A stretch of DNA of 63,725 nucleotides, counting the filler, from Dugesia japonica (Eukaryota), in assembly GCA_001938525.1 (NCBI GenBank). It is 5 parts of 5 records of this genome, joined end to end, with 100 filler letters (N's around TTAATTAATTAA, not from the genome) between each part and the next. Parts side by side here need not be neighbours in the genome. Positions count along the whole stretch, not along the records: positions 1 to 14,987 come from MQRL01511549.1; 4 more parts are not named here. The stretch is one strand, 5' to 3'. Of this stretch, positions 2,270 to 43,410 are shown one piece after another. The notes below the pieces were generated by a model that did no database searches, had not been told where the DNA came from, and was given only the letters and a program-made list of their open reading frames with translations. Position 1 is the first letter of the stretch. Every line of letters begins with the position of its first letter. Made by a program: the position numbers and the translations under genes.

Positions 2270-2650
2270 CAGCAAATCATTTACAATTTCATCATTACTT
2301 AACCTGAATTCAATACACAGTTAATTTAATTTCTTACTCGTTTCTCGAACTTTGCAAATCTCTCTTCTGATTCTTGTTTAACTGTTGCAAGCTCCATTAT
2401 CATTTCTGTAATAGATTTCTTCATTGTAAAAGTGTCTACAAACCACTTTTTGCATCTTCTTGCGTAATTCCATCCCACTTAAAAATTTTTCTAAAAACTC
2501 CGGCTTCTTCTGATAAGAATAGATAAAAAATTCCCATCAAGCTTAAATCATTCACAATAAGCCATTCATCGAATTCTTTCAGCCATGATGTAGCTTCTGA
2601 AGCATCTTTGCCATTATATTTTTTTATATTTAAATTGATCACCTGAGTCT
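2270..2650 (-). mobile_element. Ty3/Gypsy gag N-terminal remnant
   Basis: IKKYNGKDASEATSWLKEFDEWLIVND...LFLSEEA resembles the retrotransposon gag N-terminus (F/YxG...WL). Confidence 0.55.
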
Positions 2651-3289
2651 TCTTAGGTCAGGCTTCTAAAATTAATTTTCGTTGTTAGCATGTCAAAACA
2701 TTAACATTTTCAACGTGCTAGCCAGTTAAGTTACTTCAAAAATCAGTCTTCATTAAAATATTTATTATTATTCAAAATTACAGAATTTTTAAATAATATT
2801 AAAACAAAGTATTAATCATTGTAACTACCAATCATATCAGGAATCAAGATATGGATCTGCGGTGGGAGTGCGGTCATAAGATTAAACATAAAATCAAACA
2901 TTTATTTAACAATTGCAGCATTTAGCTATGAGAAATTATTTGTCAAAATCTTTTGATAAATAAAACAATTATCCAATAATAACTAGTTTCATTGTTTATG
3001 TTTAATTAAGAAATTATACAATTGTTTTACAAAAGGTTTACATAACGTTTTTTTGAAATAAATTGTTACAATGTAAATTATATTTTCAATAGAACTCTTN
3101 NNNNNNNNNNNNNNNNNNNNNNNNNNNNNNNNNNNNNNNNNNNNNNNNNNNNNNNNNNNNNNNNNNNNNNNNNNNNNNNNNNNNNNNNNNNNNNNNNNNN
3201 NNNNNNNNNNNNNNNNNNNNNNNNNNNNNNNNNNNNNNNNNNNNNNNNNNNNNNNNNNNNNNNNNNNNNNNNNNNNNNNNNNNNNNNNA

Positions 3290-3750
3290 AAATTTTTATT
3301 AACTGCAAAAGATTTTGTCTGATTATCCGTTAACAATGGGTAATTAAAACCATCGAAACAAACTATTTACAAAGTTTAAATGACTATTAAAATAATTTAT
3401 ATCAATTTAAATGTAATTGTTGTGATATTACATAAATTGGAGAGACTTCCCATCATTTCTGCACCAAAGTTCAAGAGCATAGTAAAAATAATGAAATTAG
3501 TAATATTGTTGAGCATCGAAAAACATGTATAAAGTCAATCGGGTTTTCTGATTTTAAAGTCTTTTGCAGTGAATTTATTAATTATTGGGATAAGTGATGT
3601 GTAAAGCTTTGTTGCTAATGACATAATATTTAAAAAGATATATTCAGTTGACGGATTCAACATCGCTCTTAAAATTATGTTATTGATTATTTATTGAGAT
3701 TGCATAATTGTAATTATATAGTCATTTAAACTTTGTAAATAGTTTGTTTG
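3290..3750 (+). mobile_element. Penelope-like GIY-YIG endonuclease remnant with a partial inverted duplication
   Basis: The plus frame from ~3396 reads NLYQFKCNCCDIT*IGETSHHFCTKVQEH...VEHRKTC, a GIY-YIG/CCHH pattern. Segment 3356-3388 recurs inverted at 3718-3750. Confidence 0.65.
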
Positions 3751-4479
3751 GTCGCTTAGCAAAACTTTACATGGGAATAGAATTTAAAATTCGAGTATAA
3801 ATAAAACAATTATTATATAATACAATAACAAATAATTAAAACTTATTTCAAATATATAATAACAATATTTTTTAATTAAGTGAGAAAATGTTTTTATAAA
3901 TTGCTATAAATTAATAAAAAATGATTTTAGTATTAAAAACATAAATATACCACAAAACTTTTATTTGGAAGCTAGGAATATTTTGAGAAGCATGGTGTAG
4001 AAAAATCTTTATACGTTTATTGGACAAAACGTACAAATTTCTAATTTCTTCAGAATATTCGACAGAAAAATGAAATTATGGTTTCAAATCAGTGGAATAA
4101 GTTTTATATTAAAAAGATATTTAAATAGAAAAATTAAGACACATAGCACCTCTACGTTTTCAAAACACCAATACTATCCGTTTAGAAAAATGAAAAACAG
4201 GTTTTATTGCCAAAAACATGGTAGAGCTTGAATTAAAAGCAATCAGAAGCAAAATCCACATAGAAGGAGAATTTAAACATAATTTAATCGATCGCTGAGA
4301 AGCATTGAATATCAATTAAAGGCAGGAGGAAGATATTTTACTGCTGCATATAGTAATAACACAGCTTGATGTTTTTACCCCATCAGCAGATAATTTTAAA
4401 CATAAATGATCATTTATCCTAGCTCCATTGTCTTTGGAATAAATTAGGGAGTTAATATATTTTGAAAATTGCAAGTGTA

Positions 4480-4985: not shown

Positions 4986-6299
4986 ATATCGAAATTCCGA
5001 GATATTATAGGTTTCAATATTGCTGCAATTTGTTTGCCTATAATACTGTATTTCCAATCCACATTTTTAACTCCGGATATAGTATTAGTAATACTTGATG
5101 CATCCTTTTTTCCGTTGATAGTTCTAATAGTTCACAATTCTCCATGATCTCTTATGATACTGCTACTAATTGTTCGTTTTGTGTCGGCTTTTGACGTGTT
5201 GCTCCTTTTGTCGTCATAGATCCTCTTGGTCGTCCATGCGCCTTTCGTTCCGTCTCTACACCGACTAATATTTTTTTATATATTTTGTGATCTGTTGTTT
5301 CTTCTTGATTATCCGTAGTTTCGATTGAATTATCTGTTGTCGTTATTTCCTCTTCAAATTCTACTGATAGACCTGTATTTTATTCTCCAAATTCGTATTC
5401 TGATGTAATTAGCGTACTTGCGTTTTGCTCGAATTCCATTAATGACGATGATTTTTGTTTTGCTCCTTCTGGTATTCTGGGTGGTGACCATATTTCGTCA
5501 TTAATATCATAGTATACTTCTCTAGGATTGAACTTATCTTTCATTGTCTTCTCCTTTTTCACTGGTTTTATTGTCATTGTTGCTGGTTCAAAATGAGTTA
5601 TTTGTATCTTTTCATCCTCTTCGCTTGATAATCCAAATAATTGTTCCATAATATCATATTTTTTGTCGTAATTTCTCTAGAGATTGTATGTCCTTTTGGC
5701 TTCGCTGATATATGGTGGTTCGTACGGTATTCTCTCCTTTATATCTCCAATTGTTTCGTATGCTAGACTGGCTATCTTAGTTTCGTATCCTTTCGGATCT
5801 ATTATTTGAAGGCGCTATTGTCGAGGTTCAATTTCACGTGTTTTTAGATCTCGCCATTTTTTAATGATTGCTCTGAACTGTATTGGCCTCCTCTCACACT
5901 CTTCCTTAAATCGTAATATTTTAAATGCCAGGTCTCTTAGTTCGTTTATTGGTAAATTACTTTTTAGAATCTGTTTTGCTTATTCTTGAACTTGGTCCCT
6001 TGAAATATTCGTTTCATTAATTCACTGTTTCTGATGCATAGTTGTTTGTTTTCTTTGTATATCTCATCATTGCTAACCTTTCTACCCATCTGTATAACTC
6101 CTGATTCAATCGGTATTGACGACTCAATGCTTGTCATGACCGTAACATTGTCACTTCTTCCGTAAAATCGAAATCTAATTCCTCAGGGTGTATTTGTAAT
6201 TCCCATGGCACTATCGGGTTCATATTCTCCACAAAATACTGCATCGTTTTCTGAAATAAACTTTCTCTTATTCGGGTATACGGATTTATGTCTCCATCT

Positions 6300-8890
6300 C
6301 CAGATGCAAATACGTATATATTCATCATTTGATCTGACCATATTCCTGACAATTTGATTGCATCACGGTCAAGATCTTCTGTGATTACCTTACCGCAATA
6401 GATTACAATATCTTCTCTTTTTACTTTTGAAATATTTTCTTTGTCTATTAACGATTCTTTATTCACATACTTTAATATCTGTTTTATCAATTTCTCCCAT
6501 GTTGTCATCATTTTTACTTCAAATTCTTTACTTGACTCGTCTGGAAAGTGAGCTGTCACTTTCACTACTTGTCTTGGCGTCTGTGCCTGCAATAAGACTA
6601 TTGCTGTTACTACTTCATTGAAATGTTCCCCACATATTAAGCCTAGTTGATTCATTCGATCTATTACCTCTATTGTTTCTCTACTTTTAATATAATTTTA
6701 ATTATTTAGTATTATTAGCCCAATTTTGCTACATTCTATTTCCACGATTTCCACGGTTCCACTTCATTTCCCACAGTTATTGTAAATTATATTTGATCAT
6801 CATATACTAATTTCAGATAATCCATTTTATCTATTTTCTCTTGATATACTTTTTTCATATTTGTGCTCATTCTACTAACTGAAATTATCAACACTTCTCA
6901 GTTGTCCGTCATCATATTCTATTGTTAATTCTGTTATCTCACCAGGTCTTAACCTGAACTCAATTAAGTGCATATCTCGATTATTCAATTTATCTCGTTC
7001 AATTATCATGTTATCAAATATAATTCTATATCTTTCCAATCCACGTTCTAGCGGTAATTCACTAAAAATATCTTTTAATTCACCGACTGTTAACGTCTTG
7101 AGTTTTTTAATTATTTTTGTTTGCATCGTTATCACTAATTTTCGTCTATAGTCGGATAATTGATTTTAACACCAACATCTGCTCCTACTGTTTCCTTTAA
7201 TACCTCGCCCTTGTACATATCGATTAACTCTGGGTGCTTACTGCGTTTTCCTCCCCTCATTAGCTGATAATAATGTTCATCCCATTATTCTCCAGTACGA
7301 CTGTTTCGGGATTCCGTCTTTACGAAATAGGGTTTCTTTGATATAATTTTCTATCGTTAACACATTCTGATAGTATTCGTGATCTGAATTATCGTCTGTT
7401 GATATTGGTGGTTCGCTAAACTCATCGATACTTATAGCAGTCATACTTGTTGGTTGTTTCAGGTTCTTTTTATTTCTACTCAATAATTTGTTTGATATTG
7501 ATCTTATCATAAATAATCTTCCTTGACTCGTACCAGGTTTGTTGTCTTCTGTTTTTGATTCTATAATTTGATCCTGTTGTTTTTGGAGTTTCAGATGTTT
7601 AATAAGCGGAACAATGTAACTCATGTAACATTCATCCAATGATTTCAAAATTTCCTCGGTTGCTCGAAAATCTAAGTGCGACCATAATTTTTCTTTATCT
7701 TTACACACTCGTTCTTTGTCAGTCACTCTGACTTTTAGTTCTCATCCTGGTTTGACTCAATAAGTATATGCATGCTCATTAACATCACCTTGATCTACAA
7801 TCATTGTTGGAGTATGTATTATATATTCCGTTATCGGTTTCGGCCACTCTAATTTCGATAAAGCTTCCAGTAGATCTCGGACTGTTAATCCTTTGATTTT
7901 CACGACTCATAGACGATGGTATTTTGTCATTTCTTGTAAGTTCGTTGAATTCCACATCTTTTCGCTTATTAGTACTGGCTTGATTGATTCTCCAACCCAG
8001 ATAAAATAATCCTTGCTTTTGATTACTTTATTACCTCAGCTTTGTATTCCTCGATTAGCGGCTTTCCTTTCTCTTTCGTTGTAATATCCATATGACCTGG
8101 ATCCGTTAACTCTACCAAATGATTCATTGTCATCCCATAACGTCGCCTGTTTAATTTATTTTTTAAATTCCGTGTTATTGCGAATATGTTTTTGATAGCT
8201 TTTGTCGAATCATTTACATCTTTGATCGGCGCTATAGGTTCCTTGATAGCTCGTTTTACCTTTTGTAAGACTTCGATTGTCTCGATTTCTTCTTTGATTG
8301 TATTATCTACATCATCTTCAGTCTCAGATATATCTTTAGTTTTCATCATATTTACTTGTGTGATTAACCGTTGATTGCTTCTTGGAGCTTTTATTTCTGT
8401 TCCCGTCATCATCAGTTTTATCTCTTTTATGCAGTTTTCTATTTTTTATTAATGATAACTGATTCTTTTGTGGGTAAAATGGTTGGTTTGAAATTGAATT
8501 GATTGGAAAAGTGCAAATTTTTGTATTTGTTGTAATTGATTCTCGTATTTCATTAGTATATCGATGTAACTTTCTTTTAAATGAATTTATAATTTCTTCC
8601 AAAGTTCAAAATTGTAAGTATTGCCACACTGGTTGTTTTCTTTTATAAACTTCCGGTAAATTCAAGACTTGTATTATCTCTTTACGTCCAGGCCTGATTC
8701 CATAGTTAGTTATAGGAGCATCGACATCGTCCTGTTCAATTACTCTCGTCTTTGAACATATTACATAGTTGTCTAATGGCTCTTCTAATACTTGTTCGTT
8801 TTTAATAGCACAAAATAGTCCTCCCATCGTATTGTTTTGCAAGGTGACCTGACATGGTGCTATTTTTTTGTCTGATTCTTTGAAATGTTT
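6300..8890 (-). pseudogene. Array of ~5 divergent ubiquitin-like (beta-grasp) domains in the element A polyprotein
   Basis: Repeated TxxxL...YxI...I(E/D)...Yx(I/V/L)(R/K)PG units at ~8660-8890, 7725-7900 and 6900-7170. Also TIENYIKETLFRKDGIP at ~7300-7365, and VKVTAHFP...FEV...IVIYCGKVITED...LSGI at 6310-6570. Confidence 0.6.
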
Positions 8891-9439
8891 AGTTTTTTGT
8901 ATATCGTAACTATAAAATCGTCTGGCTTTGTTTGCTCTCTCATTTCGTTTTCGTATTCCCAGATCATTGGCTGCATTCCTCCCTGATAGTTGGGTTTAGA
9001 TGGCTACATTCCATTAGTTCCATAACGTGATTCATTTATTTCCTATAAGTCTTTCTGTTGATCATGCATTTGAATACTTGTATTAATTTGAGTTTATATT
9101 CTACCAGTCGTTTTACCGATGTTTGTTCACTCTTTGCGATCTTTACTTCCGTTTCATTGACTGTTCGCATCATATTCACTCGACCTCATCTCATCTGCGC
9201 AACCCGCTTGTTCCTGTTTGAGTTTATCATATACTCGTCGTTAAGTTGCTTCATGTTTGTGCATTTCTTGTTGCATCATGTTAACTCGCTGTTGACTCTG
9301 CTTCTGGTTATTCTGTAATTGTGGTCGTAAGCTATTATTTTGTTGTATCCTATTTTCGATTGCTTGATTATTTGATTTGTTATTGAAGACTTGGCTATTA
9401 TTTCCATATCCACTTCCTCTCGTATTTCTGAAGCAATTT

Positions 9440-10500
9440 CTGTTACAAGTATAAAATACAATGGGTTTTGATGTATAATATTGATCTGCTGTTTTTCCTG
9501 TTCTCTGGCATAATTTACAAGTTGATGGCACTAAATGACATTCTCTGGCTATATGTCCATATTGCCCACAGTTAAAGAAGTTTTGATTACTCGCTGGTTG
9601 CCAATTATTTGGTCTATTGCCACCTTCTCCTCTTGAGTTATTTAGTTGTCTTCTGTTGTCGGAACGATTCGGTCACGGAGTCAATGATTTTAGCAAAGGT
9701 TGCGTATTTGCTGGTATTGAATTCGTTATCTTCGGGACCTTCTTTTCTCCTGAGTCTTGCTCCTCAATTTTAAAGATACTAGCTAGTTTCTGCGTAGCTT
9801 CTACTTTTTGTGATACTCTGGCTACGTTTATAGCTTGTTCCACCGTTTCTGGTTGCATTAAATTAACCCGCTTTCGCACTTCTGAGTTTCTTAGACCTTT
9901 AATAAATATTCCAAGAATTACTTTATCTTGCACCTCGTCTCCGAGGGCTAGTTTTCCGAGTTTCTACAATTCTATTACAAAAGCTGGAAAAGATTCATCA
10001 TTCATCTGTCGTCTAGCTGAAAAATCTTGGACTTCCTGTCCTTGTAATGTCAATAGTTTGAAGTTGTCTTCTAAGATCTTTTTAGCATCCTTCCATGTTT
10101 TTACACCATCGTTGACTAGTTTTGCTTTATTTCAGTATATCGTTTTTGCTGATCCTTTTAAATATAATGGTAATTGCTAGACTGCTCTCTGCTCACTCTA
10201 TCTGCACGCTTTTCTATGAATTTCGTATGCGGCTATGAAATTATCTAATTTCTCCGGGTTGCCCGAATAATGTTCTTCATTGAACTCTGTTTTCCATACT
10301 GATTCAAGTTTAACTTTAGTTCCACTTAGGCTGTCGTCCTCCGGTTTCTCAATAGGGCTAATCATTGTGTCTTGGTTATCCGTTTCATTTCCTGACATAA
10401 TTGATTCGTCACTAGATTCTAGACTGTTACTTTTACACGTGTTCAATTGACTTGATGGTCGATAGATTTTTTCCACACTGGTATGTTCAGATCTCACTGT
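9440..10500 (-). pseudogene. Gag capsid core and zinc knuckles of giant element A (disrupted by stops)
   Basis: ORF-track pieces 10198-10497, 9673-9933 and 9241-9531 join through in-frame stops. The knuckle at 9538-9583 reads FFNCGQYGHIAREC. Confidence 0.8.
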
Positions 10501-11499
10501 CAGGGCTTGTCCTTCCTGAATTCGATTGGCTCAACAATATTATACTGTAATTGCATTTTGGATCGCCGATTGGATTTGAATCTGATTCGCTAGTTTTGTA
10601 TGTTTCTGTTAAGTTATCTGTAGATCTTGTTGGAGTTGATGGAGTTCCTGGTTCTGTTAAGAATTATTGATTGTATGGTTTCTTGCTTTGTGGATTGAAC
10701 GATGCTGTTTTACTTTTCTTTTCCAAATGAATATGATTTCTTGTCTTTTGTCTAATTTCGTAGATTGTATCTGTCTGCTGAACTCGCAGTGATGAATTAG
10801 TTTTCGATCGTTTGATTTATTGAATAATATGAAAGTAAAATATGATAGCCTCCTGGCTTCTAAATTCTAGATCACTTCTTTTTTCATGTATCATTAGTTC
10901 TTATTAGTAGTTTGTTTAATATTAATACACATGCGCTTTATTATTATTTATTATTCATATACTTTTTATTATTTATTATTATATTACGCAATTTATTAAT
11001 TTTTTAATTCCTATACTTTGTTAGTTCACACAGTTCACATTTTTGCACACCTTTAATTAGTCATATATATCATATTGCACACATTATCATTGTAGGTTCA
11101 TTTTACGCCCAACTTATCTACCAATTTATTTCGTTTAATTCATTAAGTTTTACCCGCGATTTGACTTTCATCTATACTCGATTTTATTTCTCTTTAATTG
11201 TCATACCGTATTTTATTTTCATTTCTACTTTGGCCATACTTATCCCATCGTCAATTCACATTAATACACATTAATATCTTTATTCCAAAATTTCTACAAT
11301 CTTTCCTGATTGCTGCTCTGCATTTTCTAATTCTTGTTTCTCTTCTCACGATGTATATTATTTAAATTTTATTCCTCAATTTTTCCAATATCCTATATCA
11401 TGAGTTCATACTTAACTATAATTATTTTATAAATTTCGTCATTATTACGGTAAAATCTCCTTTAACATTATTCCTTAAGTCTTTTTGCAATCGGTAGGC

Positions 11500-12740
11500 C
11501 ATTTCAATTCAGCTCCGATTATTATTTCCATACTTCAATATATTTAAGTGACCAATAGTCTATTCTTTCAGCTTCGGTTATCTTTAAATCACGAGGTTCC
11601 TATTTCAGGAGTAGCTGGTAGTCTATTTCGATTCGGCTTCAGGCTCTCCAACTAATGTGTCAATTCTCTCTAAACTGCATTTTTTAGAGTAGCTGTGAGT
11701 CTATTTTCTTTTGGTTCAGCTCCAATCTACTCTTTAATGTGAAGCATCTCAGTAAAATGTGAAATTTCACTGATTTGTATTTTCCGTGCTGCTCGGACGT
11801 GAGATTATAGAGAAAACTCTTCGGGGTTTCCAACTCTTGCTAAACTGATTCCAATTTTGGTAACCAATGTACCTTCTAGTCAACACTGAAATACAATAAT
11901 CACAAGTTTCTCCGAATCTATTTTGGCTGATTCTACCATGACTCATTTCACCTTATCAAATAAAATTCTGTAGGGCTATGAGCAGATAGCTGTAGAGAAT
12001 GGATTTCAAGGCGAATCCACGCCAACCGAACTGCCGTAGATGGTCAACCTATCATTTACGGATGCCTAACTTTGCCGACACCCTCATTGATTTCTTGTGA
12101 ATCGTGACTTATCTTCTCTAGATAAATCTTGTATTGTGATTCTTTCGTCCTGAGAACTATCCACAGTAGTTAGTTCCCGAGAGCAGTACTCTTTATCCAC
12201 AGCCATGAAGCTCGAAGACAGTCTCAAGCATATCTCCAGAAGATATTCTTTCACTACAATTACTTCGAAGATTTCTTACCATTAGTCAATAATAACGTCC
12301 TCTTTCTTGGTCATTAGACAATCATTAGGGCTATCCTCTTGGAAGTTGATCAAGCTTCGGATTCTAGCTTACTGATTGCCAGCCCTATTTTCCAAAATTG
12401 ATCCTATTATCACGACACCTTTTCCTAGGGTACTTTCACATATCTATGATTACTTCGAGTCTTCTTTCCAACTCAAGGTTTTCTTTCAAAACAATTTCTA
12501 ATATCTCGATACTCTGGCAAATCCCGAGCTCATAATTTGTAACTCTAAAACCTTCGATTAATACAAAATAATAAGTATTCTCGTGAGTGGTTCCTGCTGG
12601 ACACCACAGTAATAAAACTTCCTGCAATACTATCGTCCCCTTCTCCATTCCTTTTTCGATTAAGATTTCGATATTACCTCGCATGGGTCTACCTGTGTTG
12701 ACTGTCCCGATACCCATCCCGCACTTCTTGATAAGTATAG
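11500..12740 (-). ncRNA. Conserved structured 5' leader of giant element A (paralogous to 16560-17710)
   Basis: Colinear non-coding similarity with element B, with no shared open frame and compensatory stem changes (TGGATT-tcaaggcg-AATCCA vs GTGAGTG-tcaaggcg-CACTCAC). Confidence 0.6.
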
Positions 12741-14987
12741 CTTTTAGTTAATCATGTTGCAGATTACTCCTTGAATCTACAATAATTCAGTCGTTAATAC
12801 GTTTGGTTACTTTTGATTGATTCATCTACTCGTCATAATTCCAATTATTATCTCCTTCATCGTTTAAATTTCTCAATTAATTCTAGTATTTATGTTTGCG
12901 ACCCTTACCCAACTTAGTCAATTTATTTCATTAATTTTTTATAATTTCCATATCATTTAACCATTCATATCGTTTTAATTTTTCTCCACATTATTCCTTT
13001 AATTTCTTCGCAATAATTATTCGTTTATCTCTAAAACTCCTTAAAAAATATCTCTCTTTATTCTTATTAATTCATTTTAACACTTTCCGCATCATTTTAA
13101 TAATATTTATCTAATAATCTCGATTCAATATATTTAATTCATGTCATACTTATCTTCAATTGAGTAAAAATTAGATTTGCATATTTTAAGGTTTTTATGT
13201 TGAATTAACTTTCCATGGGAGTAATTAAAATTTTAACTAACAGTGTTATTTACCGAATAGAATATGGAAATATTTTAATTTTAATTAACTATACTAAACT
13301 ATAATAGTTTAAACTATATTTTATTTTAAAACATTAACTGTTTCTAAAATATCAGAATATTTTATACTTTTAAAATTAGAATTTAATAATTTAATTTATT
13401 TTATTATTATAAAAGCAAATTTGTTTTGCTAGTCCATTTTAATCTAACCCCTCGCAGCTATTATTAAACTGTGTGGCAAAACATTCATTTTACTGATTTC
13501 AAATTAGAATCGTGGCAAACATGTAAGTCTATTTTTACTATTTATAAAAATTAATTAATTGTTTTTTTGTGTTCATTTAGGAACCTAGCACAAACTTAAA
13601 CCAACGGAGGCTTTGAATTATTGAACATCGATCTACAGTGTATGCATTAACTTTAGTTACACAAAGTTGATACAAGGCCATCAAACCATTCAGAATGTAT
13701 ACGGAATCATAATCCTGATGTCACTTGCATAAAATACAAATCCGATGTTTTATATGCTCTATGGTTTGATAGGAAATACTTGGAAGATAATATGAATCGA
13801 TTGTAAGTGAGAAATAGTGTATTGTTTTGATTTAATTTCAGGATTACTGATTTACACTTAGCAAAATTAATCCAGTTGTTTCTGAATCGGAATCTGTTAT
13901 TCCCAGCTATATTTCTGTTGAAGATGGAAATGGAGAAGATATTGATTATGAATTATGTATTTTATTAAATACTTATTGAATAATTAGTAACGTTACTATT
14001 GAGAACTAAATTAATTTCCTGCTATTAATTATTTATGCAAAGTTTAATTAGATTTGTGATGTTTTGAAAATAAGCTGATGAATTAATTTTGAAATATTTT
14101 TAATATGACTCAAATTGTTTATTTTACATTTCAGATTATTTTCATAAATCTTTTTTAAAAGCTATTTTTATTATTAAGAAAGTTTAAATATTCCACCATA
14201 AGCAATAAAAACAGAAAAAAAATTTTACATAAAAATATATTTCCAAATTGAATTAGATAATTCAGTACGTATTGAAAGATTAGAAAAATGGCATCAAATA
14301 AAGACCACACAATTGGAAATAATAAAGGTAATTCTGGAATAATTCACGATTATTTTTATCCTTTTAAAATACAACGCGAGGTAATTTTTAACTTTAATGA
14401 TAATCTTTATTGACTTGCTAGAAGTTTCTATTTATATGTAATCATGTAAATACAACATGCTTGGTGTCTAAATTTGTTGTTTGATATTTTCAAGATATAC
14501 TTATTAATGAATATTTCGTCATATTCATGTTATTAAATAACTTTAAATAAATTTACAAAAGGTTTAGTTCTAAAATAATTAGTACTTATCTTAGCGGTTA
14601 ATTTTTAAATAAGTTAAACTTTGTCAAATAATAATTTGGAAATATTTATTATGAAAAGTTATTTATAATTTTTATTTTAATGATAATCTTTATTTATTTG
14701 CTGATGTTTAATAGGGCAAATTTAATGTAAAATACTTCGATGAGAAGATCTTTGATGATAAACTACTTATGTCATTTAGATTGCAACTGTTGTTTTTATT
14801 CTATTTGCTTTGTTTGGTGCTTATTTGAATAAATAACATAATAAATAAATAAAAATAGATAAATCATTTCTAAATATCACTTACTCCACAGTGTGCACTC
14901 ATCAAACCTCGGGTAATTGTCATGTCAGTTAAATAATACCCCCGAACTATTTGTGTTAGCTCAGCTCATTATATTAATAATCGAAAC

Positions 14988-15087
14988 NNNNNNNNNNNNN
15001 NNNNNNNNNNNNNNNNNNNNNNNNNNNNNNNTTAATTAATTAANNNNNNNNNNNNNNNNNNNNNNNNNNNNNNNNNNNNNNNNNNNN
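14988..15087. other. Artificial scaffold-joining linker (44 N + TTAATTAATTAA + 44 N)
   Basis: Exact 100-bp pattern with a six-frame stop core, repeated four times in the window. Confidence 0.97.
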
Positions 15088-16559
15088 TTTTAATTGATTT
15101 TTGTAATGTGTTACTTATGATTTTAATTTGGATTTAAAGTCAAATAATATGAATAATGTATACATTTTAATTTAAATTATTAGTTAATTAATTTTAAACT
15201 TGTAATAAATCTTGTTTAAATTCATAGTTTGCAATATATGTAAACTTTTCAAATTTCAAATTTAATTTTACAAATAAAAAATATAGACTACGTTTTAAAA
15301 TATGTGTAAATTTTCTTTTAGTTACTTAAAATTTTAATAAATTTATATAAAAATTGAATAATTATACTAAGTTCCTTAAGCTTTCTTCGATTTCATTGGA
15401 TTTTCACCAACCATCCAACTTGACCAATAACAAGAATTATGCTCCAGATTTTAAGAATTATATGAAAAATGTNNNNNNNNNNNNNNNNNNNNNNNNNNNN
15501 NNNNNNNNNNNNNNNNNNNNNNNNNNNNNNNNNNNNNNNAAAAATGTATACTTATGGAATGACCACTTATTTTACACTTTGTTCTTTCGGATTTTACCAG
15601 TCTAATATAAAGTTTGGCGCTTTAAAATGATGATATCCAGAATCAGTAAACATTTCTCTATCTTATAGATCCTTTGATGTTCAAATTTCACTGACTTTTT
15701 ATTTTTTCAAAATTTGATGGTTTATCATTAGAGACTATAATTATACATGAGGGCAACCCATAATTAATACTTGTTTTTAATTTATTTCATTAATAATACA
15801 GTTTGATGATTTTTATCCGTATTAATATTGATATTTGAAATATTTTCAATTACTGCATTCTCCTCGTGGTCTTTTTCTTTATAAGTGGTTGACATGGTAT
15901 CAGTATCACTTGATTCCGAACTTTATTCCGAGTATTTTCGATTTCTACTTGACGCTCTTGTCGTAGATATACTATCATTAACTGATTTAGATTTGTATAA
16001 ACTTTCTAGATCAAGGTCTTCTAACAAATTGGCTATTGAGTGGTTTGGTTCGGTTATGGTGTCGAATTCTCTTTGTATTTCGTCGTTAGACGGAAACGAA
16101 CTGGGTGATTCGGATGCTGAAATTGATAAAAATTGATTGAAGTGTCGAGACGGCCTGTTTTATTATTATTTAGGCTGAATTGGATCATTTATTTACAAAA
16201 GACCTTCTATGTTCGGTACTTTCTCTAAAATTGTATTGGGGTTCCTGATTATCTATGATTGTTAATTTGATTGGCTCGTATATTGATTGGTGTATCTCGA
16301 ATTTTGGAACATTGAAATATATTTTGTTTTGGTTTCTGAAAATAAATAAGATGGCCCTACGGCTTCTGCACACATTCAAATATTATTATCGCATTCATTA
16401 ATTAACCACTTTTACAAAGTATCCAGAACAACTTGCTGGTAATCAACTCACAACTGCAATATTTACTACAATGTCTTACGTTCATATTTCGATATTTTTT
16501 TTCAAAATAACTTATAATCGTTTCTTCCAACAGTTTATTTGCTTTGAACCCTCTCTTTA

Positions 16560-17710
16560 TGTAGCCTGTAATCTTTTATTTCAGCTTTAGTTGGGCGACA
16601 ATTTCGATACTCAATTTTCAATAATACTTCAATATCTCAATGCTTGAGTCAGTTGACAGTCTATTTTGATTCAGCTCCAACCGCTCGCTAGTATGAAGGT
16701 TCTCAGTCAGAATCCTATGATCCAGCTGATGTGTAACTACGACGCTACCCGCAATCGCAATACAAAAATAATTTTCCAAAAATAAACAACACTACTGATG
16801 CCACACTTGGGCTAACTATAGTACCACCTTGTCAAAACTGAGTTCTCTGATCGCAAGATACCATGGACAATATGCGGCCTTGTCCTACCGGGATTTACCA
16901 CCCTAAAATCTAAAGCTCTGTAGAGCTACGGGTAGTTAGCTGTATGGAGTGAGTGTCAAGGCGCACTCACGCCAACCGAACGCCATATGTGGTCAGCTTA
17001 ATCAATGCCATGCTCATTGCCGGCTCCTTCGTTTATTCTCCGGGAATTCTTGAGTTTATCTCGCTTGGACTAAACTTCATTCTTCTGGCGTTGAAGTCAG
17101 ACAAAGTATCCAACTTCTGAGATCAGTACTCCTTATTCGAAGCGTTGAAGCTCGAAGTCCGACCCAGCATATCCACGGAAGATCTTCCAGTCCAATAACT
17201 ACTTGGAAGATTCCATTCTTTAGGTCAATAACAATTTCAATCATTTCAGTTATTAGACGATCATTGCGGCTGTTCCTTCAAAGTTGATCAGGCTTCTAGT
17301 TTCAGCTTACTAATTTCAGACCCTATTTTCCCAAATTACATCTACCATTATGACATCTTTTTCTCAGTTGCTTTCAGATATCCATCGTTACGCTCGAAAT
17401 TGTCTCTCTTCAAATCACCATAATTAAAATTCTTCAACAACATTTAAATCTAAATTCCAAATAATTATCTCATATGAAACCCTCAATTAAATCACCAAAT
17501 AATACCAATAAACTCTCGAAAATTTAATTTCCAGTAATAGTAACTACTCGATTATTGTTTCATATGACTCCGTAACCATAGAACCCCACTGTTACACCTC
17601 ATCCTCATCTCCGTTCATTTGTCGATCGAATTCTTGGTTACCACTCACTTGGGTGACCTCCCTGTGTTGACTGTCCCGTTACCTATCCTGCACTTCTTGA
17701 TAAGGTATAA
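16560..17710 (-). ncRNA. Conserved structured 5' leader of giant element B
   Basis: Blocks shared with 11500-12740 in the same order: TCAAGGCG...CACGCCAACCGAAC, CAGTACTC, GAAGCTCGAAG, AAGTTGATCA.GCTTC, CCCTATTTTCC, CCTGTGTTGACTGTCCCG and GCACTTCTTGATAAG. Confidence 0.6.
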
Positions 17711-20352
17711 CAATTTATTCTCCAAATAAATTTCATTGATTAACTACATTAAAATACTCCAAATCATTTGTCGCCCCCTCTTCTCCGTAAATTATATTAG
17801 TTAATCGACAATCAAAATCATTCTCTCATCATTTTTAATCTCATAACTTTCAGTTTCCATTACTCCATTATCGGTGCCATATCATTACTACTCAAATTAT
17901 TCATTATTCATCAATAACAGTTTGCATCTCGTCAATTCAATTATTATTCAATTCCAATAAATTATATCGTCACAACATTAATTACTATTGTCAATTATTA
18001 TTCATCCTGAATTTAGGCTTCATTTATTAGCTCATCTCGTTTACTTTAATATTAATATTCATTCTGATTCATTCCCACATCCCGACAGGATACGTCTCGA
18101 TCCATTAATTTACTCCCCATACTCATTGTTTCACCTTCTCAATGGAGGTTCTAATCTCAATAATTATTACTCTTCTTTATTATTCTTTGATTTATAGTCA
18201 TTATCGCTTCTACTTTATGCTGAGCTGCTTCATTTACATTAAATCATATCTTTACTCATTTAGAATTTATAACTCGCCTCGTTAACTTTTATTTATTCAT
18301 TCATTGCTGCATATCAATTTCAACTACGCTTCTTTTACTATATTGTTACTGGTCATTGGTTTACCCACCCCAAAAACTCGCTTCTCGTTCCGATTTTCTG
18401 CTGCTAAATGTATGTTAAAATTTATTCAATACTTGCCTCATTACTAATACACTTCTAATGCTGCTCCTTTTTTTATGCTTAAATGTCAAATGTCTATTGA
18501 CTCACATCCAGTTTCTACTACTGTTGTTTTCATAGACAACTGACCTGTGCGTCAATCTGATTTTCTCCGCTTTTATCTAAAATCCCTGCCGATTACTCAA
18601 CAAATATTCCATGACCAGCTGCAGCAATTTGGTTCTGATGTTTCACACAAACTGCCCGGCCTGATCATTGTTTACTTGTTGATTCATTTAATACGTGATG
18701 CTCGAAGTGAGGCCTTCCGAATGAGAAGAGTTGCGAGATACATCTTCTAATCTCACAACTATGCTCATTTGAAACCACTCTATTATAATTTCATCATTAT
18801 TTGTTTATTTATTATACTTTATTTAGTTTAATATTTATACCCTCGTTAGATGCTCCTTACCACATAATCCGGAGATGCAGTGCATGTGAGTCCCATTTCT
18901 CTCTCACACACTTCACTTCCAAATCTTTTGGTACATTCATTTTCCTACACATTTGTTTATGAATTACTCATAAGATGTTTAATATAAGTCTATCTCGATA
19001 CTTGGTGTGTGCAAGTTCTCATGACCCACTCTCACCCGCCAAGCATTTGAAACACCGTCTGATTTTTATCATTATCTCATTTCATAATTAAGTTAACTGC
19101 TGTTTGATATAAATTATGCTCGCTGTCACATGAAAGATAAGCAGCTTGTAAATCTCACTCTATTTTTGGACGCTCATCATTATCTGTGCAGCATCCTTAC
19201 AGGACACACACAATAACTCGATGCCTGTGTCGAATCGTAATACAAAAATTTTGCCGCAACTATTTAACTCACTTTATAGCCTCGTTTAAACTCAACTTTT
19301 AATCTTTCACTTCACCTCTCATTACTCGAATTTATCGCTACTCTTTACACAAAATCTTAACCATGCTTTGCCTGTATCTTATTATGTTCCTATTCTCTGT
19401 GTGCATTATAATTGTCTTATATCATTGTTCTTTTAAATGCGTGCTATGTTCTTTACTCTCTGCCTATCTGTATCAACTAATAATACGTGCTAACTAACTC
19501 AATACTTATGTTGTACTTATATTCTACTGTAATAATTATTATTTATTGGTTGATTTTAAATTATCTATAATTATTCAAATAAAATAAGATAATAAAATAT
19601 TATATCCAATTATCCAAAATTCTACCTTGTTTTAAATATGTAATTTACATCGAATTTAAATTATCTAAATAATATTACTAATATATATTAATAAAAATAT
19701 AAAGTATCCGAGTATTACCAGTGCTAAAATCATTATGCCAATATAAATAAAATCAGTACCAAGCTCATCAACAAAAGTTCATTTTTAATTTAGCTGCTTA
19801 TCAAACTGTACTCAATCTTTATTGAAATACTTTTATAAAAAATCGTTTACTAAAAATTATTTACGAAATTTATTTACTGAAATTTATAAATGAACATTAT
19901 AATAATAAATAAATTATTAATTATACTGCGCATGTTAAAAAAGTACATTAATAAAATATTAATGCGCAAAGTAAAGAATATTAATCAAATTATCAATCTT
20001 ACATGATTCGAGTGCCATTTTCATCGACAAAATAACTGCATAATTTTTAAAACTTATCTGCATATTTGGAACATAATTTTATTATTCAATGCTATTCAAT
20101 TACAAATATATTCGATTTTACAAATATGCATATCCCAATTAGATTTTTCCGCGGCCATTTTCCGAATGTAATTCGCACTTTGCATTTTCATTCATTTACA
20201 ACATTAGTTCTACTCGTTTCGTTAAAATTATCATAATTGTGCTATCTTTGTAGTGGCATTACTGAAAATTACGTTTAACTGGATAACAAGATTTAATAAT
20301 TAGTTTTCTGAAAATTAATAGTGTATGAAAGAGATTTAGATCGATTGCGTAG

Positions 20353-20370
20353 TTCTCGGCTGAGCCCCCA
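20353..20370 (-). promoter_or_regulatory. Primer-binding site, tRNA-Pro-like
   Basis: The minus strand reads TGGGGGCTCAGCCGAGAA, compared with the canonical tRNA-Pro PBS TGGGGGCTCGTCCGGGAT. It lies 7 nt downstream of an LTR-type ...AACA end. Confidence 0.65.
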
Positions 20371-20725: not shown

Positions 20726-21100
20726 TCATTTGGTATCCAAATCCACGGTCGTGTTCATGGCTTCTGTGGATGGCGGCGGTTCTCGGTAATTCATCCACAA
20801 GGTTCGTAGCGTCAGGAGCATCGCACTCTCCCGATCAGCATACGTTTTAATTACATCAACCATGAGGCGATAAACGTGCTGAAGGGACAATTCGTTTTCT
20901 TTTAACTGGTTGTACTTCCCCGTAGCCTTTATAACTTGCCCCTTCAGTTGATGGATCTCATTCCACATATCTCGCCACTCCTCTGACAATTTGTTTCTTT
21001 CTCCAGCAACATCCACATACAAGTACCCGAACTCGTCGATATACGCGCTCAAATCTTCCTTAGATTCATCTCGGCTCTCATTATGATTTGGTTCCTGCAT
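20726..21100 (-). CDS. Intact 124-aa coiled-coil ORF or terminal exon inside the LTR of element B, function unknown
   Basis: GC-richer open frame preceded by an acceptor ttgattacag| and followed by AATAAA ~20 nt after the stop. Heptad-like segment LSEEWRDMWNEIHQLKGQVIKATGKYNQLKE. Confidence 0.5.
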   Translation of the reverse strand: MQEPNHNESRDESKEDLSAYIDEFGYLYVDVAGERNKLSEEWRDMWNEIHQLKGQVIKATGKYNQLKENELSLQHVYRLMVDVIKTYADRESAMLLTLRTLWMNYREPPPSTEAMNTTVDLDTK

Positions 21101-21709
21101 CTGTAATCAATCAATTAAGGTCATTCAACTCCATAAACTAATGCAACAAAAATAGTTTTTTTAAACGATTCTTCGGCCTGGAAACTATCTTTTCCTCTCC
21201 ACCGCTTCATTACGCAAACCAGAGAAGACGGTCACTATTTGCAAGCATCTTTTCTCGTTTTCATCATCTTCAAGACTCCTCTACATGATTAATTGAAATT
21301 TTCTCCCTATACTAACAGCATAACAAAATATGGATTTACTGAGCTACGATAATACTAAGATTTTTATTAAACTGACTTTGAAATATTAGCTACTACAAAT
21401 CAACTTGAATATATCTAAGTCCCAATAATTGATCCATAATACGGACGTTAATAAAACGACATTCTTAAAGGTTTCACTATAACGAAAATCTATAGTTTCA
21501 CTTTCCAGACTGCCAAAAATATAATCCACAGCAAGCTAATTTGATTCATGTAGAATTCAAACTGAGGACTTACTAGTATGGATATTAATAACTTTAATAC
21601 GAAAAGAAAAACTCAACAATAACTAAAAGTTACTGCTGAAAGTTCCTCCAATCGAAAAAAAATTTGATTTGTTAATATAAATTGTTACTAAAGTTTCATG
21701 AAAAATCAA

Positions 21710-21813
21710 AACAAATTTCACTATGACGAGAAAATATAATTAACAAATTTCACTATGACGAGAAAATATAATTAACAAATTTCACTATGACGAGAAAATA
21801 TAATTAACAAATT
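21710..21813. repeat. 32-bp tandem repeat, ~3.2 perfect copies
   Basis: Unit aacaaatttcactatgacgagaaaatataatt at 21710, 21742 and 21774. Confidence 0.95.
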
Positions 21814-22354: not shown

Positions 22355-22515
22355 ACCTTTAGGAATTTTTAAAATAAACTTCTCTTTTGAATTAATTCAC
22401 CTTTAAGAATTTTAAAAATAAACTTCTCTATTGAAATAATTCACCTTTAAGAATTTTTAAAATAATTTTCTCTATTGCAATAATTCACCTTTAAGAATTT
22501 TTAAAATAAACTTCT
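22355..22515. repeat. 44-bp tandem repeat, ~3.7 copies
   Basis: Unit acctttaagaatttttaaaataaacttctctattgaaataattc at 22355, 22399, 22443 and 22487. Confidence 0.9.
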
Positions 22516-36478: not shown

Positions 36479-39400
36479 TTGGGGATTGCTGGGATGTCAA
36501 CGCCGAAGCTTGATGGACGAATTGAGGATGGAAACGGATTGGTACAGTTGGGCTCGATGCTAAAACCGGTGATCGCCTGGCTTACAGACACACTGGACGG
36601 CGCCGCCCAAGTACCGAAAACAAGTAAATATTTTTCGCGCACTTTGCGCAAACTTAGTAAAAATTTTAGTAATTTTCTCTTTAACTCTTCAAGTAATATT
36701 TTGAGTAACAATTTTTGTAATATTTCCTTAAACAACTTTAATAATATTTATTCGAATAAGAGTTTGTTATTCTCAATTTTTCTTGAAAACGTTTACAATT
36801 TTGCCATTGAATGCTGCCTCGCGGAACCAATTACCCTTAAGAAATGCGCAATGATTCTTTTTGGGGATATTAACTTTATTATCAATTTTTGTGATGATGA
36901 TGTTAAACTTGTGGATAAGCAGCAGGGAATAAGGGGGCAAAATTCATCTCTTTTTTCGGAAAAAGGCGATAAAGAACAGAATTTGGCAGAAAATAAGAGT
37001 GAACAAGAAAAACGAACACACATTGCATATACTTGCCACAATCATCGCAAATATAGGGAACACACAAAAAAATGTAAATCTCCAAAGAAATGTACCTTTT
37101 CTAAGACGGTTAATGAAAAATACACACAATCTAAGGAGGTTTTCAAGACAAATAGGGAAATTTTAGTTCAGGATAGTAAGACCTTGGAAAGTAGAACAAA
37201 TAAAAAGGATGAAACACAGAATGAAAAACGAGATATTGTAGTTAAGGTTAAAGTGGAACATGCAGGTAACAACAACACAACATACAAGGACGCACTTAAT
37301 AAAACATCGAAAACGAATCGAAGACGAATCCCGATTTAAAAAGGTCAACTTCCAAAAAATAACAAACATCCATCTAAACAACATTAAAGATCAGGATGCT
37401 CCTTTAGCAAATGTTCTTCTTCATAACCATAGGGAATTCACCGTTTATTTAGACAGTCCACATAGTAACCCACAGAATAAAAGAATAATGATCATTGATA
37501 AGTACTTGAAATGCTTAAACGTTCTCTCTGCAAATATCAATGATTACGAAAAAATCACGGATAACTTTAGCTCGCGTATTAAATTTTCTGCGGCTAAAAT
37601 AGGAGAGTCTAGTGACATTATAACAAAAATAAGCTGACTAGCTGAGAAACCAGGCACCATGCCAAAGCATAACAAAACAGGCAATACTCATAGCTTTAAG
37701 ACCAAACCAATTTCAAAAAATAAATTGTAAAACATTGCATCTGAAATAAGCTTTAGAATATCTAGGGTCTGCAATAAACTCGCAAAAATAGCCACCATTA
37801 AATTAAACACTTTGCATACCTCACTGCTCTGTGTTTGAAAAAAGGAATCGAAAGACATAAAAATATGTTTGGATTTCAGACAATTGAATGTAGTAACGAA
37901 AAGACAAGCCTTTCCTATGCCTAATGTCGATGAAATGCTGGACAAGTTAGATGGAGCCAAATATTTTAGTTCAATAGATTTGGAAAATATATACAGAGCA
38001 GGTAGAGCTCGAAGAAGAATCTCAAGAAAAAATAGCGTTTTCAACCAAGCACGGACAATATTGTTTTAATAGAATGTCATTTGGCATCGAGGCGGAACAG
38101 GTGGCATTTCAGGAGATGATGACAAAAGTTGTAGGCATAATCAATGGAGCCATGTTTTATCTTGATGACATTTTGATATGAAAAACAATAAAGATCAACA
38201 CTATGAATTCATTGAAAAATTATTGACGGAAAAAATGAAGGCTGGTCTAAGAATTAATCCGGAAAAGGGTCAGTTTCTTCAAAGCGAAATCAAGTTTCTT
38301 GGACACATAATTAGCAGGGATGGTGATCCATCTAAAATAAAAGCAATAAGAACATTTGGCAAATCTAACTGTGTGAAGAAGTTACGAAGTTTCTTGGGAA
38401 TTTGTAATTGTAAGTAAATATTTTAGACAGTTAAATTTTTTGATAGTTCGACCGAAGTTGTTAACGAAAATAGTTTGATAAATAATTAATTAACTTCATG
38501 TAATAAAGTTAGAAAATTTAATTGAAAATATTTTTTGATTATAAAATTTTGTAAATTGAATTATTTTCAAAAATTTAATGAAGAATATTTTTGCTAAACA
38601 TTAAATTTTGTAAGATGAATTATTTTCTAAAATTTAAGTAAGAATATTTTTAAATAATTTCCGTCAGAATTAAATAAAAATGTTAGCTTGTTTAAAAAAT
38701 TTGTAAAAAAACAAATTGAGAGTGAGTTTTTTTGTTGTCATTAAATAAATCTTAGAATGAAAAGTGTTCAATTTTTAAATGAAAAGATGAATGGTACAGA
38801 TTCATCTAACAGTAATTATTACAGAAAGTTTATAGAAAACTACTCAAGAAAATCAAATATATTAGTGCAGTTGTGTAGCGGACCAAGCCACAAGAAATTA
38901 GAATGAACAGATGGAATAAACGATACTTTTGAAGGTCTAAAAAAATCTCTAATGACTGCACCAATATTGTGTTTTCCGGACATAAACAAAGAATTTATAT
39001 TAGATACATGTGCCAGTTTTGATATAATTGGAGCAGTATTGTCACAGAGAGATAAAGAAGTAAGAGAAAGAGCTGTTGCCTATGGATCACACTCAATGAC
39101 GAGTCATGAAAAGGGATACTGCATTACACGAAAAGAGTTATTGGCTGNNNNNNNNNNNNNNNNNNNNNNNNNNNNNNNNNNNNNNNNNNNNNNNNNNNNN
39201 TTATAAAGCTCTAACTTTCATGATGACGACAAAGAAACCAATTACGTCACAATTCCAGACATGGATTAATTATCGGAGCAGTTTAGATATGGTTTTGGAA
39301 TATAGAAAACGAATTCAACATGATAATGCAGATATATTATCTAGACCAAGATGTGAGGTATGTGTACAGTGTCAAATTTCATATGAAGATGCCAAGAAAT

Positions 39401-39930
39401 GGAAGATTAAAACGAGAATACGGAGTCAATTGAAAAGGAAAAAGAAGATCACTTAAACATTTCCAAGGAAACAGATTTGATCAAGAAAATGGAAATTACG
39501 GATAACAAACTACGTGAAAAACTAGAAGAAATACATAAATTATTCTGTCATGCAGGAGTTGAAAAGGTGTACCAATATATGAGAAACAAATATATTGCAA
39601 AGAATTTGTGGAGCCAAATACAGAAGTTAGTTCGTAGTTGTGGAAATTTTCAGAAGACCAAAGTAGTGACAATAGCAACTAAAGAGAAGACAAACAGTTT
39701 AGAAGCTACCAATTTATTTGAAGTGATATTCACAGACATATGTGGGCCAATGCGGGAAACAAGTGGACGGAAAATACATTCTTGGAATAATTGACCAGTA
39801 CAGTAAATATCTGGTTTCTGTACAATTGCCTAGACAAGATTGTGAAATAATTCAAAAGCTATTTTTGAAAAGTGGGTATTAAGATTTGGATGTCCGAAAG
39901 AGATAAGACTAGATTGTGGAAATCTTTTGA
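36479..39930 (+). mobile_element. Decayed Ty3/Gypsy element(s): gag with CHCC motif, RT, RNase H and integrase N-terminus
   Basis: Gag PKLDGRIED..WL and TCHNHRKYREHTKKCKSPKKCTF. RT CLDFRQLN..AFPMPNVDEMLDKL..YFSSIDL, MSFG and FYLDDIL. RNase H FILDTCAS..IGAVLSQ..YCITRKELLA..NADILSR. Integrase HKLFCHAG..VRSCGNFQ..FTDICGP. Confidence 0.9.
38409..38811. mobile_element. Solo LTR (403 bp, TG...CA) inserted in Gypsy pol, 5-bp TSD GTAAT
   Basis: GTAAT at 38404-38408 and 38812-38816. Removing the insert restores FLGICNYYRKFIENYS. Confidence 0.85.
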
Positions 39931-42302: not shown

Positions 42303-43410
42303 TTATTTTAAATTATGGTTTTCAGCCTGAATGCTTAAATGATTTAATTTAGACGCATTTGAACCAGGGAGAACAGATGCGATTTGAACATCAGTTTTCT
42401 TGGATCTATCAGAACCTGCATGATGATCAGATCTAGATCTTTTTGCCGGCGTAGATGAACTTGTGGACGGCGGTGTATTATTCAAATTTCCCTGATTTGA
42501 AGATTCTGAGTAGGACTTAGCCGTTTTTGGATCAGAATATAGATCAAGAATTTGATGACAAATATCTTCCATAACCTAACTAATATTATTTGAAATAATA
42601 TTTGGAAAATTTTACTTCAATAGTCATTCCTTCAACAAAACTTTCCCACCACTTTTGGCCAACCTGTTGATTGTCCCAACTTTCTATTTCTTGTTTATTT
42701 AATTTTGTAGCTAAATATAAAACAGCACAAGCTACAATCTCTGGCTCCCATTTTAAACATAAATTAGTTCTCAAACTATCATTAATAAATGTCCATGACA
42801 TCTGAACAAGTCTCTCGACATTTGTTTGTTTACCTTGATCTATATAATTACGTTTAAATATAACATAATACCTTTAATTTTTTGAACATAGTTCAACAGG
42901 TATTTGTAAGGATGAGAGACTTGTAAATCGAATTTTATGGTTTTCAGTAAAATTCTTTCCATCGTCATAATTTCTTCCTAATAATATTTGAAATTTTATT
43001 AGTGTAATAAAAGCAATGCCTTAGGATCACTTCCAAATTCGTTAAAATGTTTTTTATCTAAAATAGATTTTGTCATTGTTACTATGTCTCGACATTTCTT
43101 AGGAGTTTCTTCAACTTTACCGGCCAAAAACAAGCAACATGAGGCTGTCAACTAAAACTGAAAGTCGTTTATTATAATTTAATATGCTTACAAATCTTGG
43201 CATAGTTTTAAAAGAATGAAACATATAGAATCTGTGAAAATATACCATAGCTGTAGCACATGTATCATATTTTAGGCCCAGCTTATTACCAAGTTCACTA
43301 ATGAAAGTTGCTCCTTCATTACGATACTTATCTTCAATTCGAGGATCAATTCCGTCCGTTAAAGATGGTGTATTCCTCAATTCTTCTTTTTCAAAGTACC
43401 AACATGGCAT
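42303..43410 (-). CDS. CCNK: Cyclin K, 5 exons (43410-43192, 43151-43020, 42977-42872, 42839-42616, 42575-42303), 317 aa
   Basis: The spliced product reads [16 protein letters not shown]...[15 protein letters not shown]|[22 protein letters not shown]...DPK|[24 protein letters not shown]...[22 protein letters not shown]...|[13 protein letters not shown]. These are diagnostic cyclin K motifs, and the frame is preserved across all junctions. Confidence 0.95.

Follow-up and report, generated by a model that had tools for sequence, protein, structure and literature searches.

A conserved non-coding block with predicted RNA structure ahead of the first open frame of two diverged retroelements in Dugesia japonica

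Introduction

Very large retroelements have to choose, export and translate an RNA of great length, and how they do so is an open question, on which a handle is offered here by two diverged elements, A and B, that lie in one analysed stretch of Dugesia japonica DNA (the window: 63,725 nt in all, made up of AT-rich scaffolds joined by N spacers). A first-pass annotation had proposed that both carry the same non-coding leader block, conserved as a cis-acting structured RNA that would serve as an IRES, a packaging or dimerisation signal, or a ribozyme. The question is what this block is, and what it could do for such an RNA.

Results

Two elements on different scaffolds share one block

A and B lie on different scaffolds, as first reported (the separator occupies 14988-15087), and both are read on the minus strand, so that the RNA is the reverse complement of the strings quoted in the first-pass annotation, all 14 of which were found within the block. 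Using blastn we recovered the ordered block that the two elements had been said to have in common, with 68.2% identity over 500 nt between A 11961-12453 and B 16911-17391 (E 3.2e-32), and 77% over 113 nt between A 12633-12739 and B 17599-17709 (E 2.6e-14). Local alignment of the two blocks gave a score of 698, against a best of 116.5 in 30 shuffles, and judged by their sequences they are homologous far beyond chance. The flanks downstream of the blocks scored 122.5, and those upstream 354.5, a value that has no shuffle control beside it and looks like AT-rich noise. Identity per 100 alignment columns was, from the 5' end, 0.76, 0.54, 0.45, 0.72, 0.69 and 0.71, and in the next six bins toward the 3' end 0.55, 0.74, 0.54, 0.58, 0.66 and 0.61. 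The flanks and ORF starts had been described as unalignable by eye; the two ORF starts do have one 33-nt island in common. Coordinates of the block and its parts are collected in Table 1.

Table 1. Positions in the window of the conserved block, its predicted parts and the neighbouring features of elements A and B
Feature	Element A	Element B	Strand	Basis or detail
Whole conserved non-coding block	11497-12745	16570-17715	minus	blastn, local alignment; in A also contig depth peaks
5' module (A, 46 nt)	12689-12734	17658-17703	minus	local alignment; 42/46 identical
Rod, predicted (A, 130 nt)	12285-12416	17224-17354	minus	joint folding
Multibranch domain, predicted	12073-12230	17018-17169	minus	joint folding (z -4.12 vs plus -0.77)
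First 6-bp helix, 3 compensatory changes	12000-12023	16950-16973	minus	helix search
Invariant 4-bp stem	11975-11990	16925-16940	minus	loop (A 11980-11985, B 16930-16935) pairs with distal strand below
Small junction and 7-bp hairpin	11933-11973	16885-16923	minus	joint folding
Long-range helix, distal strand	11789-11794	16745-16750	minus	helix search
Repeated motif AGCYGAA...AAAU/AUAGAC	11497-11721	16570-16676	minus	A: four copies (11721, 11638, 11573, 11514); B: one full copy (16676), one partial by eye near 16585
ORF-start island (A, 33 nt)	10829-10861	16336-16367	minus	A: GCC-N4-GGC hairpin and U-tract, no AG end; B: U-tract, then CAG at the end, resembling a 3' splice site
Decayed gag, broken by stops	9241-10861		minus	PF00098 match
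Decayed S/T/E-rich frame		15830-16367	minus	tblastn of Gag relatives
PBS-like motif		20357-20370	minus	only match in window; 6/100 shuffles gave one

No third copy of the block was found in the window. Among viral contigs two patterns gave 0 matches and a 16-mer pattern gave 30 with likeness confined to the seed, and no Gag relative was found there; prokaryote genomes gave 0 matches. A metagenome pattern scan returned 1 match, in unrelated GC-rich coding DNA, which we rejected as chance.

The zinc knuckle of the A gag matches PF00098 at 22.3 bits (cut-off 20.8), a Ty3_capsid match stands below its cut-off (E 0.007), and a full HMMER scan returned 209 Gag-like proteins at E <= 0.001, the best relatives being 25-31% identical. 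This combination of a Gag capsid and a CCHC zinc knuckle places A among the Ty3/gypsy LTR retroelements. The gag is followed by ~4 kb of broken coding sequence (5001-9001) for which no Pfam match was found in the three minus frames, MATH, BIR, BCL2 and ankyrin included, this copy being decayed and cut. Several post-Gag coding pieces at 6134-8995 (minus) look ubiquitin-like by eye; for one of them the leads, at 0.76-0.83 (all <0.9), were FERM f0, Kindlin N, RA and PI3K p85B, its predicted model had a pLDDT of 37.6, and no PDB sequence match was found. A probably ends at 13400-13600, where contig depth falls off, and the window holds no PBS-like match for it. Just beyond this apparent 5' break, RNA reads (run X16) reach a depth of up to 180 at 13704-13863, with a single mate direction in the two deepest bins, and mark transcribed neighbouring sequence.

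The S/T/E-rich frame of B is likely the pre-capsid part of gag; it breaks off before any capsid match, with Gag relatives at only E 0.15 and 0.58 (tblastn). Its PBS-like motif, which we take to correspond to tRNA-Pro, lies 2.64 kb upstream of the block, in agreement with the ~2.6 kb first reported, and such a match arises in 6 of 100 shuffles. Further upstream, in the would-be LTR, we observed a 126-codon open frame (20726-21106, minus) with no Pfam match. Two short diverged tandem arrays, at 22355-22515 and 21715-21810, also lie upstream of the motif. Reverse transcriptase and integrase were found in neither A nor B, both copies being cut, and their giant size is presumed.

The block had been placed immediately upstream of the polyprotein start, and this did not hold, as 607 nt with 22 AUGs in A and 194 nt with 3 AUGs in B intervene between the end of the block and the first nearby in-frame ATG. 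From the PBS-like site to the ORF, the B leader contains 108 AUGs. Over 4.8 kb, B has 5 acceptor-like sites of the kind that ends its ORF-start island, so that one within the island is suggestive only. Pairing of the repeated motifs with the start island, as a tether, was rejected because 3-58% of other windows pair equally in nine comparisons. Four distant Gag family models (P0002, P0004, P0005 and P0010) have differing N-termini that converge on ESI(V/A), a pattern that could stem from an acceptor where the ORF begins or simply from prediction noise.

Elsewhere in the window, a separate gag-like fragment at 61068-61600 (plus) has several CCHC knuckles and Gag relatives at E down to 2e-7, and no copy of the block was found near it. 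Host cyclin K exons lie at 42586-43416 (minus), one of which (43150-43416) is 95% identical to one protein and 59-68% to mollusc, trematode and other animal proteins, which makes a spiralian host likely. Four open frames at 30781-34090 (plus), with one Endonuclease_7 match just under the cut-off, resemble pieces of a protein-primed DNA polymerase and presumably belong to a Polinton/Maverick-type element. Judged by eye, fragments at 38907-39794 (plus) resemble RNase H and integrase zinc-binding parts of an ordinary Ty3/gypsy element and three short frames at 45739-47119 resemble a decayed hAT-type transposase, and diverged tandem repeats form a C/A-rich array at 26862-27912.

The block is non-coding

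Stops in all frames tested had been reported for the block, and over A 11700-12600 we counted 3-10 per 300 nt in every frame of both strands; the best minus frame of the A gag region (8700-10800) has 0-4. Mismatches in long gap-free A/B runs are spread evenly over codon positions, with no third-position excess, the one exception being an 83-nt run with mismatches of 9/2/10 by position and stops in all six frames. Pfam gave no match in 12 read-through frames covering both blocks. At its 5' end the A block has one stop-free frame of 103 codons, and the same frame is closed in B. An antisense exon between TTCAG and GT signals was rejected for want of a codon pattern. A coding frame or spliced exon, which the first-pass annotation had named as a finding that would overturn its proposal, is contradicted by the closed frames and the lack of a codon pattern, and the A/B block is non-coding.

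Covariation and joint folding point to a structured RNA

Covariation was assessed on two full sequences, A and B. A wobble-free helix search, which demanded Watson-Crick pairs in both copies, at least 6 bp and at least 2 compensatory changes, found 2 helices, a number reached in 0 of 60 column shuffles (null mean 0.12). With six other settings the observed count was reached by 2-33% of shuffles, including 5% in a looser search (5 bp and 2 changes) and 33% at short range with 5 bp and 1 change.

We also folded A and B jointly in seven segments, with 100 shuffles each and on both strands. The z-scores (minus/plus) were -0.17/-0.12 for the 5' module, -1.01/-2.18 for the linker, -2.73/-1.72 for the rod, -4.12/-0.77 for the multibranch domain (alignment 501-720), -2.83/-3.75 for the pseudoknot region, -2.06/-2.17 for the distal segment and +0.88/-1.96 for the repeated-motif segment. 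The signal on the minus strand comes from four of the seven segments (-4.12, -2.83, -2.73 and -2.06), and the plus strand is equal or better in three (-3.75, -2.17 and -1.96); an antisense main fold was rejected since the minus strand wins in the two longest domains. Among flanking one-sided changes 7 were G-U, 4 A-C and 2 other. When the whole block was folded jointly, both 6-bp helices emerged unprompted (p 0.96-1.0), along with the covarying hairpins and the rod, capped by the apical hairpin (p 0.92-0.93). Folded from one sequence at a time, neither the rod nor the multibranch domain stood out (z -1.3 to +0.7), and z fell below -3 in 120-nt windows only at 11960-12079 in A (plus strand) and at 17460-17579 in B (both strands). 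As single copies fold unremarkably, the structural signal is comparative. The conserved cis-acting structured RNA that had been proposed is supported by the covarying helices and by joint folding on the sense (minus) strand, and the block is very likely a real structured RNA.

Within the predicted rod, 6 pairs of a basal 11-pair helix have changed on one side only, in each case by gaining or losing a G-U on the minus strand, and the rod has one compensatory pair. Its pair probabilities are mostly 0.86-1.0, with one helix at 0.56-0.67, and single-sequence folding gives its inner part a different structure. The apical 9-nt loop contains the invariant palindrome UGAUCA (A 12347-12352, B 17285-17290); palindromes number two among 101 invariant 6-mers, which is about chance level, and joint folding places this one in a hairpin loop where single-sequence folding does not. 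In the multibranch domain, the hairpin at A 12153-12177 (B 17093-17117) has 10 pairs, of which 4 have changed on both sides and 3 on one; in the 7-bp hairpin of the small junction these numbers are 1 and 3, respectively. An Sm-site-like U-tract was rejected, as it lies inside a predicted helix.

The first of the two 6-bp helices has an invariant loop containing a CGCC that complements an invariant GGCG just upstream, and with this 4-bp GGCG/CGCC stem it would form an H-type pseudoknot. By the rules of H-type geometry, the loop lengths of this first pseudoknot suit the minus strand only. The second helix, predicted to be long-range, joins the loop of the other invariant 4-bp stem to a partner ~190 nt downstream through 6 Watson-Crick pairs, 2 of them compensatory (p 0.96-0.99). 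Both pseudoknots stand as candidates because their second, 4-bp stems never vary; without them, one 6-bp helix is a plain hairpin and the other a long-range stem.

The first-pass annotation had claimed covariation for three stems, and two of these do covary. The GCTA/TAGC stem (helix 18) is invariant, its loop providing the ~190-nt pairing with two compensatory changes that goes beyond the earlier account, and the third stem quoted (helix 13), which the automatic alignment sets out of register with 2 of 5 pairs broken, covaries only with a hand shift. A hand model drawn on A and B themselves has 121 pairs in 25 helices, of which 11 pairs show two-sided changes, 23 one-sided changes, 6 are broken and 81 identical. 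None of 500 shuffles matched it and slid versions gave 0-2 two-sided changes, controls that are biased because the model was built from the same sequences. In the pseudoknot-free global fold the hand-drawn hairpins at 12232-12244, 12024-12049 (nested) and 11691-11721 (the motif) have p 0 and one further hand-drawn feature p 0.05, and all four are counted in the 121 pairs.

The two ends of the block

Conservation within the block is highest in the 5' module, which has no fold signal (minus z -0.17); a pairing partner for it was rejected, as the best partners disagree between A and B. The motif repeated at the other end is purine-rich and bipartite, and varies in number and spacing between A and B. 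It has no sense-strand fold signal (z +0.88), and its hairpin form is unsupported in the global fold. A D5-like hairpin was rejected for this motif, since the bulge varies, and is also disfavoured by the spacing, which is wrong for D5.

Contigs and RNA reads at the block

Public contigs were aligned to A at 80% likeness, giving summed depths that are not copy numbers. In run X1 core bins had a summed depth of 6,200-15,600 and the bins at 11001-11200 and 12801-13200 one of 590-1,300, the core being 5-10 times as deep as the A flanks, with 2,400-3,900 at 11201-11500 and troughs at 11501-11600, 11701-11800 and 12501-12600. Run X9, under a second organism label, gave a depth profile of the same shape with loose ends that read like B. 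From this core-peaked shape, subfamilies with unrelated flanks likely share the core. Among the variants listed (40 of 315, 17 of them in 11635-12720), contigs carry the letter of B at 9 of 13 comparable positions, so that A's differences are partly decay. Two RNA runs gave mean depths per bin on the A block of 0-5.6 (X16, both mate directions) and 0-0.4 (X19), with no joints inside it and no end piles, a depth too thin for strand, splicing or cleavage.

Discussion

Our favoured reading, held tentatively and somewhat likelier to be wrong than right, is that the block is the packaging and dimerisation signal of the full-length genomic RNA, by analogy with retroviruses. On the element's own strand it would fold into a multi-domain RNA of ~900 nt that marks the full-length genome; two genomes would kiss through the palindromic apical loop, and Gag would bind the repeated purine-rich motifs. 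The polyprotein mRNA would arise by a separate route, through use of the acceptor-like island in splicing or through an internal start, which would skip the 108 upstream AUGs and leave the block in genomic RNA only. In B the block does lie between the PBS-like site and the ORF, on the genomic strand. Retroviral packaging signals occupy the 5' UTR and nearby gag; they rely on purines left unpaired, on pairing over long distances and on a kissing loop with a palindrome, and splicing can remove them (PMC12789967). The packaging reading fits through position, strand, purine-rich motifs, long-range pairing, palindromic loop and a tolerated variable spacer, as a spacer of 194 or 607 nt with 3 or 22 AUGs fits an element with no ribosome to position. 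It is weakened by the chance-level palindrome count, the missing GC dyad and the distance from the PBS. Packaging signals usually lie nearer to the PBS than the 2.6 kb seen for this block. Conservation across families with barely aligning ORF starts could reflect a host partner rather than Gag, and packaging, IRES, export and other roles can coexist in one leader.

An IRES that loads ribosomes for the polyprotein, reaching its start by shunting or long-range pairing, seems to us rather doubtful. With 108 AUGs between the PBS-like site and the ORF of B, cap scanning of the unspliced RNA would fail, and conservation across families would suit a host partner. Viral IRESs typically fold into several domains and contain pseudoknots. 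IRES activity has been reported for the leaders of Drosophila gypsy, VL30 and LINE-1 (PMC10974842). Against this function, which was among those first offered and has lost ground, are the variable AUG-rich spacer (194-607 nt, 3-22 AUGs), the insignificant pairing of motif and island (equalled by 3-58% of other windows), the lack of IGR- or HCV-type hallmarks, with no UAUUU or CAGCC of the IGR type at positions common to A and B, and the lack of an Rfam IRES match. A broader proposal, which we give a limited chance, is that the block represents a new class of large, doubly pseudoknotted RNA that engages host machinery for polyprotein expression, as a new IRES type or a self-processing RNA. If true, such an RNA would be better conserved among families of giant retroelements than the sequence that flanks it, and a huge polyprotein would be expressed from behind a 4-kb leader with >100 AUGs.

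Less likely again is a nuclear export element for a very long unspliced genome, in the manner of the musD transport element, which sits near the 3' end and by that position counts against the comparison. The palindromic loop would be left unexplained by export alone. In its favour, such elements act independently of ORF distance and bind conserved host factors, and the predicted architecture of the block matches that of a musD-type element (PMC5767303).

Control of splicing, or a new ribozyme that would release a short mRNA by cleaving or splicing the leader, we consider improbable. B has its acceptor-like island, and GU-purine donor-like sites (10 listed) are common to A and B; flatworm spliced leaders carry an AUG (PMC9851317). 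The A island has no terminal AG, Rfam gave no ribozyme or intron match at E <= 10, and the group II-like GUGCG occurs in A only, where contigs differ from A. A group II intron was rejected, and the ribozyme first offered as a function is disfavoured, known ribozyme and intron classes being unmatched in Rfam even at E 10.

Conservation at the DNA level, as an internal promoter, insulator or enhancer with repeated factor sites and incidental structure, is very improbable for the block as a whole, since the compensatory and G-U changes of the core are unexpected for double-stranded binding sites; it could apply to the two ends only, where the most conserved stretch (42/46) lacks a fold signal and copies of the motif differ between A and B in how many there are and how they are spaced. 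That the block is the remnant of an upstream accessory ORF, such as is reported for a Burro-like element of Dugesia tigrina (PMC6431247), is least credible of all and already largely refuted, the 103-codon open frame of A and short tblastx matches in several frames on both strands being outweighed by stops that close every frame and are several times as frequent as in the gag of the same copy, no codon pattern, many indels that are not multiples of 3, no Pfam match, and Gag relatives P0002-P0013 that do not match the block.

Since many subfamilies appear to carry the block, a deep alignment and structure probing are feasible, and the block could mark such elements in assemblies where their ORFs have decayed.

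Comparison with known systems

Retroviruses and a few LTR elements are known to have large structured cis-RNAs, and the fold of this block has no Rfam match: Rfam returned 0 matches at gathering over the whole window, and two snoRNA matches at 11300-17900 (E 2.6 and 8.6) were rejected as chance. No such leader is described in the literature surveyed, which consisted mostly of titles and abstracts.

Like the packaging signals and dimer initiation sites of HIV-1, MLV, MMTV and MPMV, the block in B lies on the genomic strand with the PBS-like site on one side and gag on the other, and its predicted features, namely hairpins, unpaired purine-rich motifs, a loop palindrome and long-range pairing, resemble those of the retroviral signal (PMC12789967). 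It differs in its size of ~900 nt, in its distance of 2.6 kb to the PBS-like site and in the 200-600 nt that separate it from the ORF, and its UGAUCA has a central AU where retroviral dimer sites have a typical GC dyad (PMC12789967). The musD transport element and the MLV post-transcriptional element are likewise large folded cis-RNAs of LTR elements, with kissing-type pairing and a pseudoknot (PMC5767303). Of this kissing and pseudoknot architecture, both covarying helices are present in the block and the partner stems are invariant; unlike those elements the block lies in the leader, it has no known sequence likeness to them, and an export role would be by analogy.

With the gypsy, VL30 and LINE-1 IRESs and the viral IGR and HCV types, the block shares a structured leader before the first ORF and candidate pseudoknots. 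The dicistrovirus IGR IRES has UAUUU and CAGCC loops and a last pseudoknot that abuts the first codon, and in HCV-type IRESs a pseudoknot lies directly before the AUG. The candidate pseudoknots of the block, in contrast, do not abut the first codon: they lie 580-1,140 nt from the island, the spacer intervenes, the hallmark loops are not common to A and B, and no HCV-type match was found in Rfam. Covariance models of group I and II introns and small ribozymes in Rfam also gave no match.

A further comparison is with Burro, the giant Ty3/gypsy element of planarians, of which decayed copies are described for Dugesia japonica (PMC6431247) and whose RNA rises on smedwi-2 knock-down (PMC8532177). 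Burro exceeds 30 kb, with LTRs, a PR-RT-RH-IN polyprotein, a Ubi2/SUMO-like domain after Gag, and MATH, BIR, BCL2 and ankyrin domains, whereas the RT, integrase, LTR pair and full length of A and B lie outside the window; A's best Gag relatives are just 25-31% identical, and the excerpts of PMC6431247 consulted mention no leader RNA. In common with it are an AT-rich spiralian host and, in A, a zinc-knuckle Gag that precedes kilobases of non-RT coding sequence with pieces that look ubiquitin-like, a layout that resembles that of Burro elements and makes A and B candidate kin.
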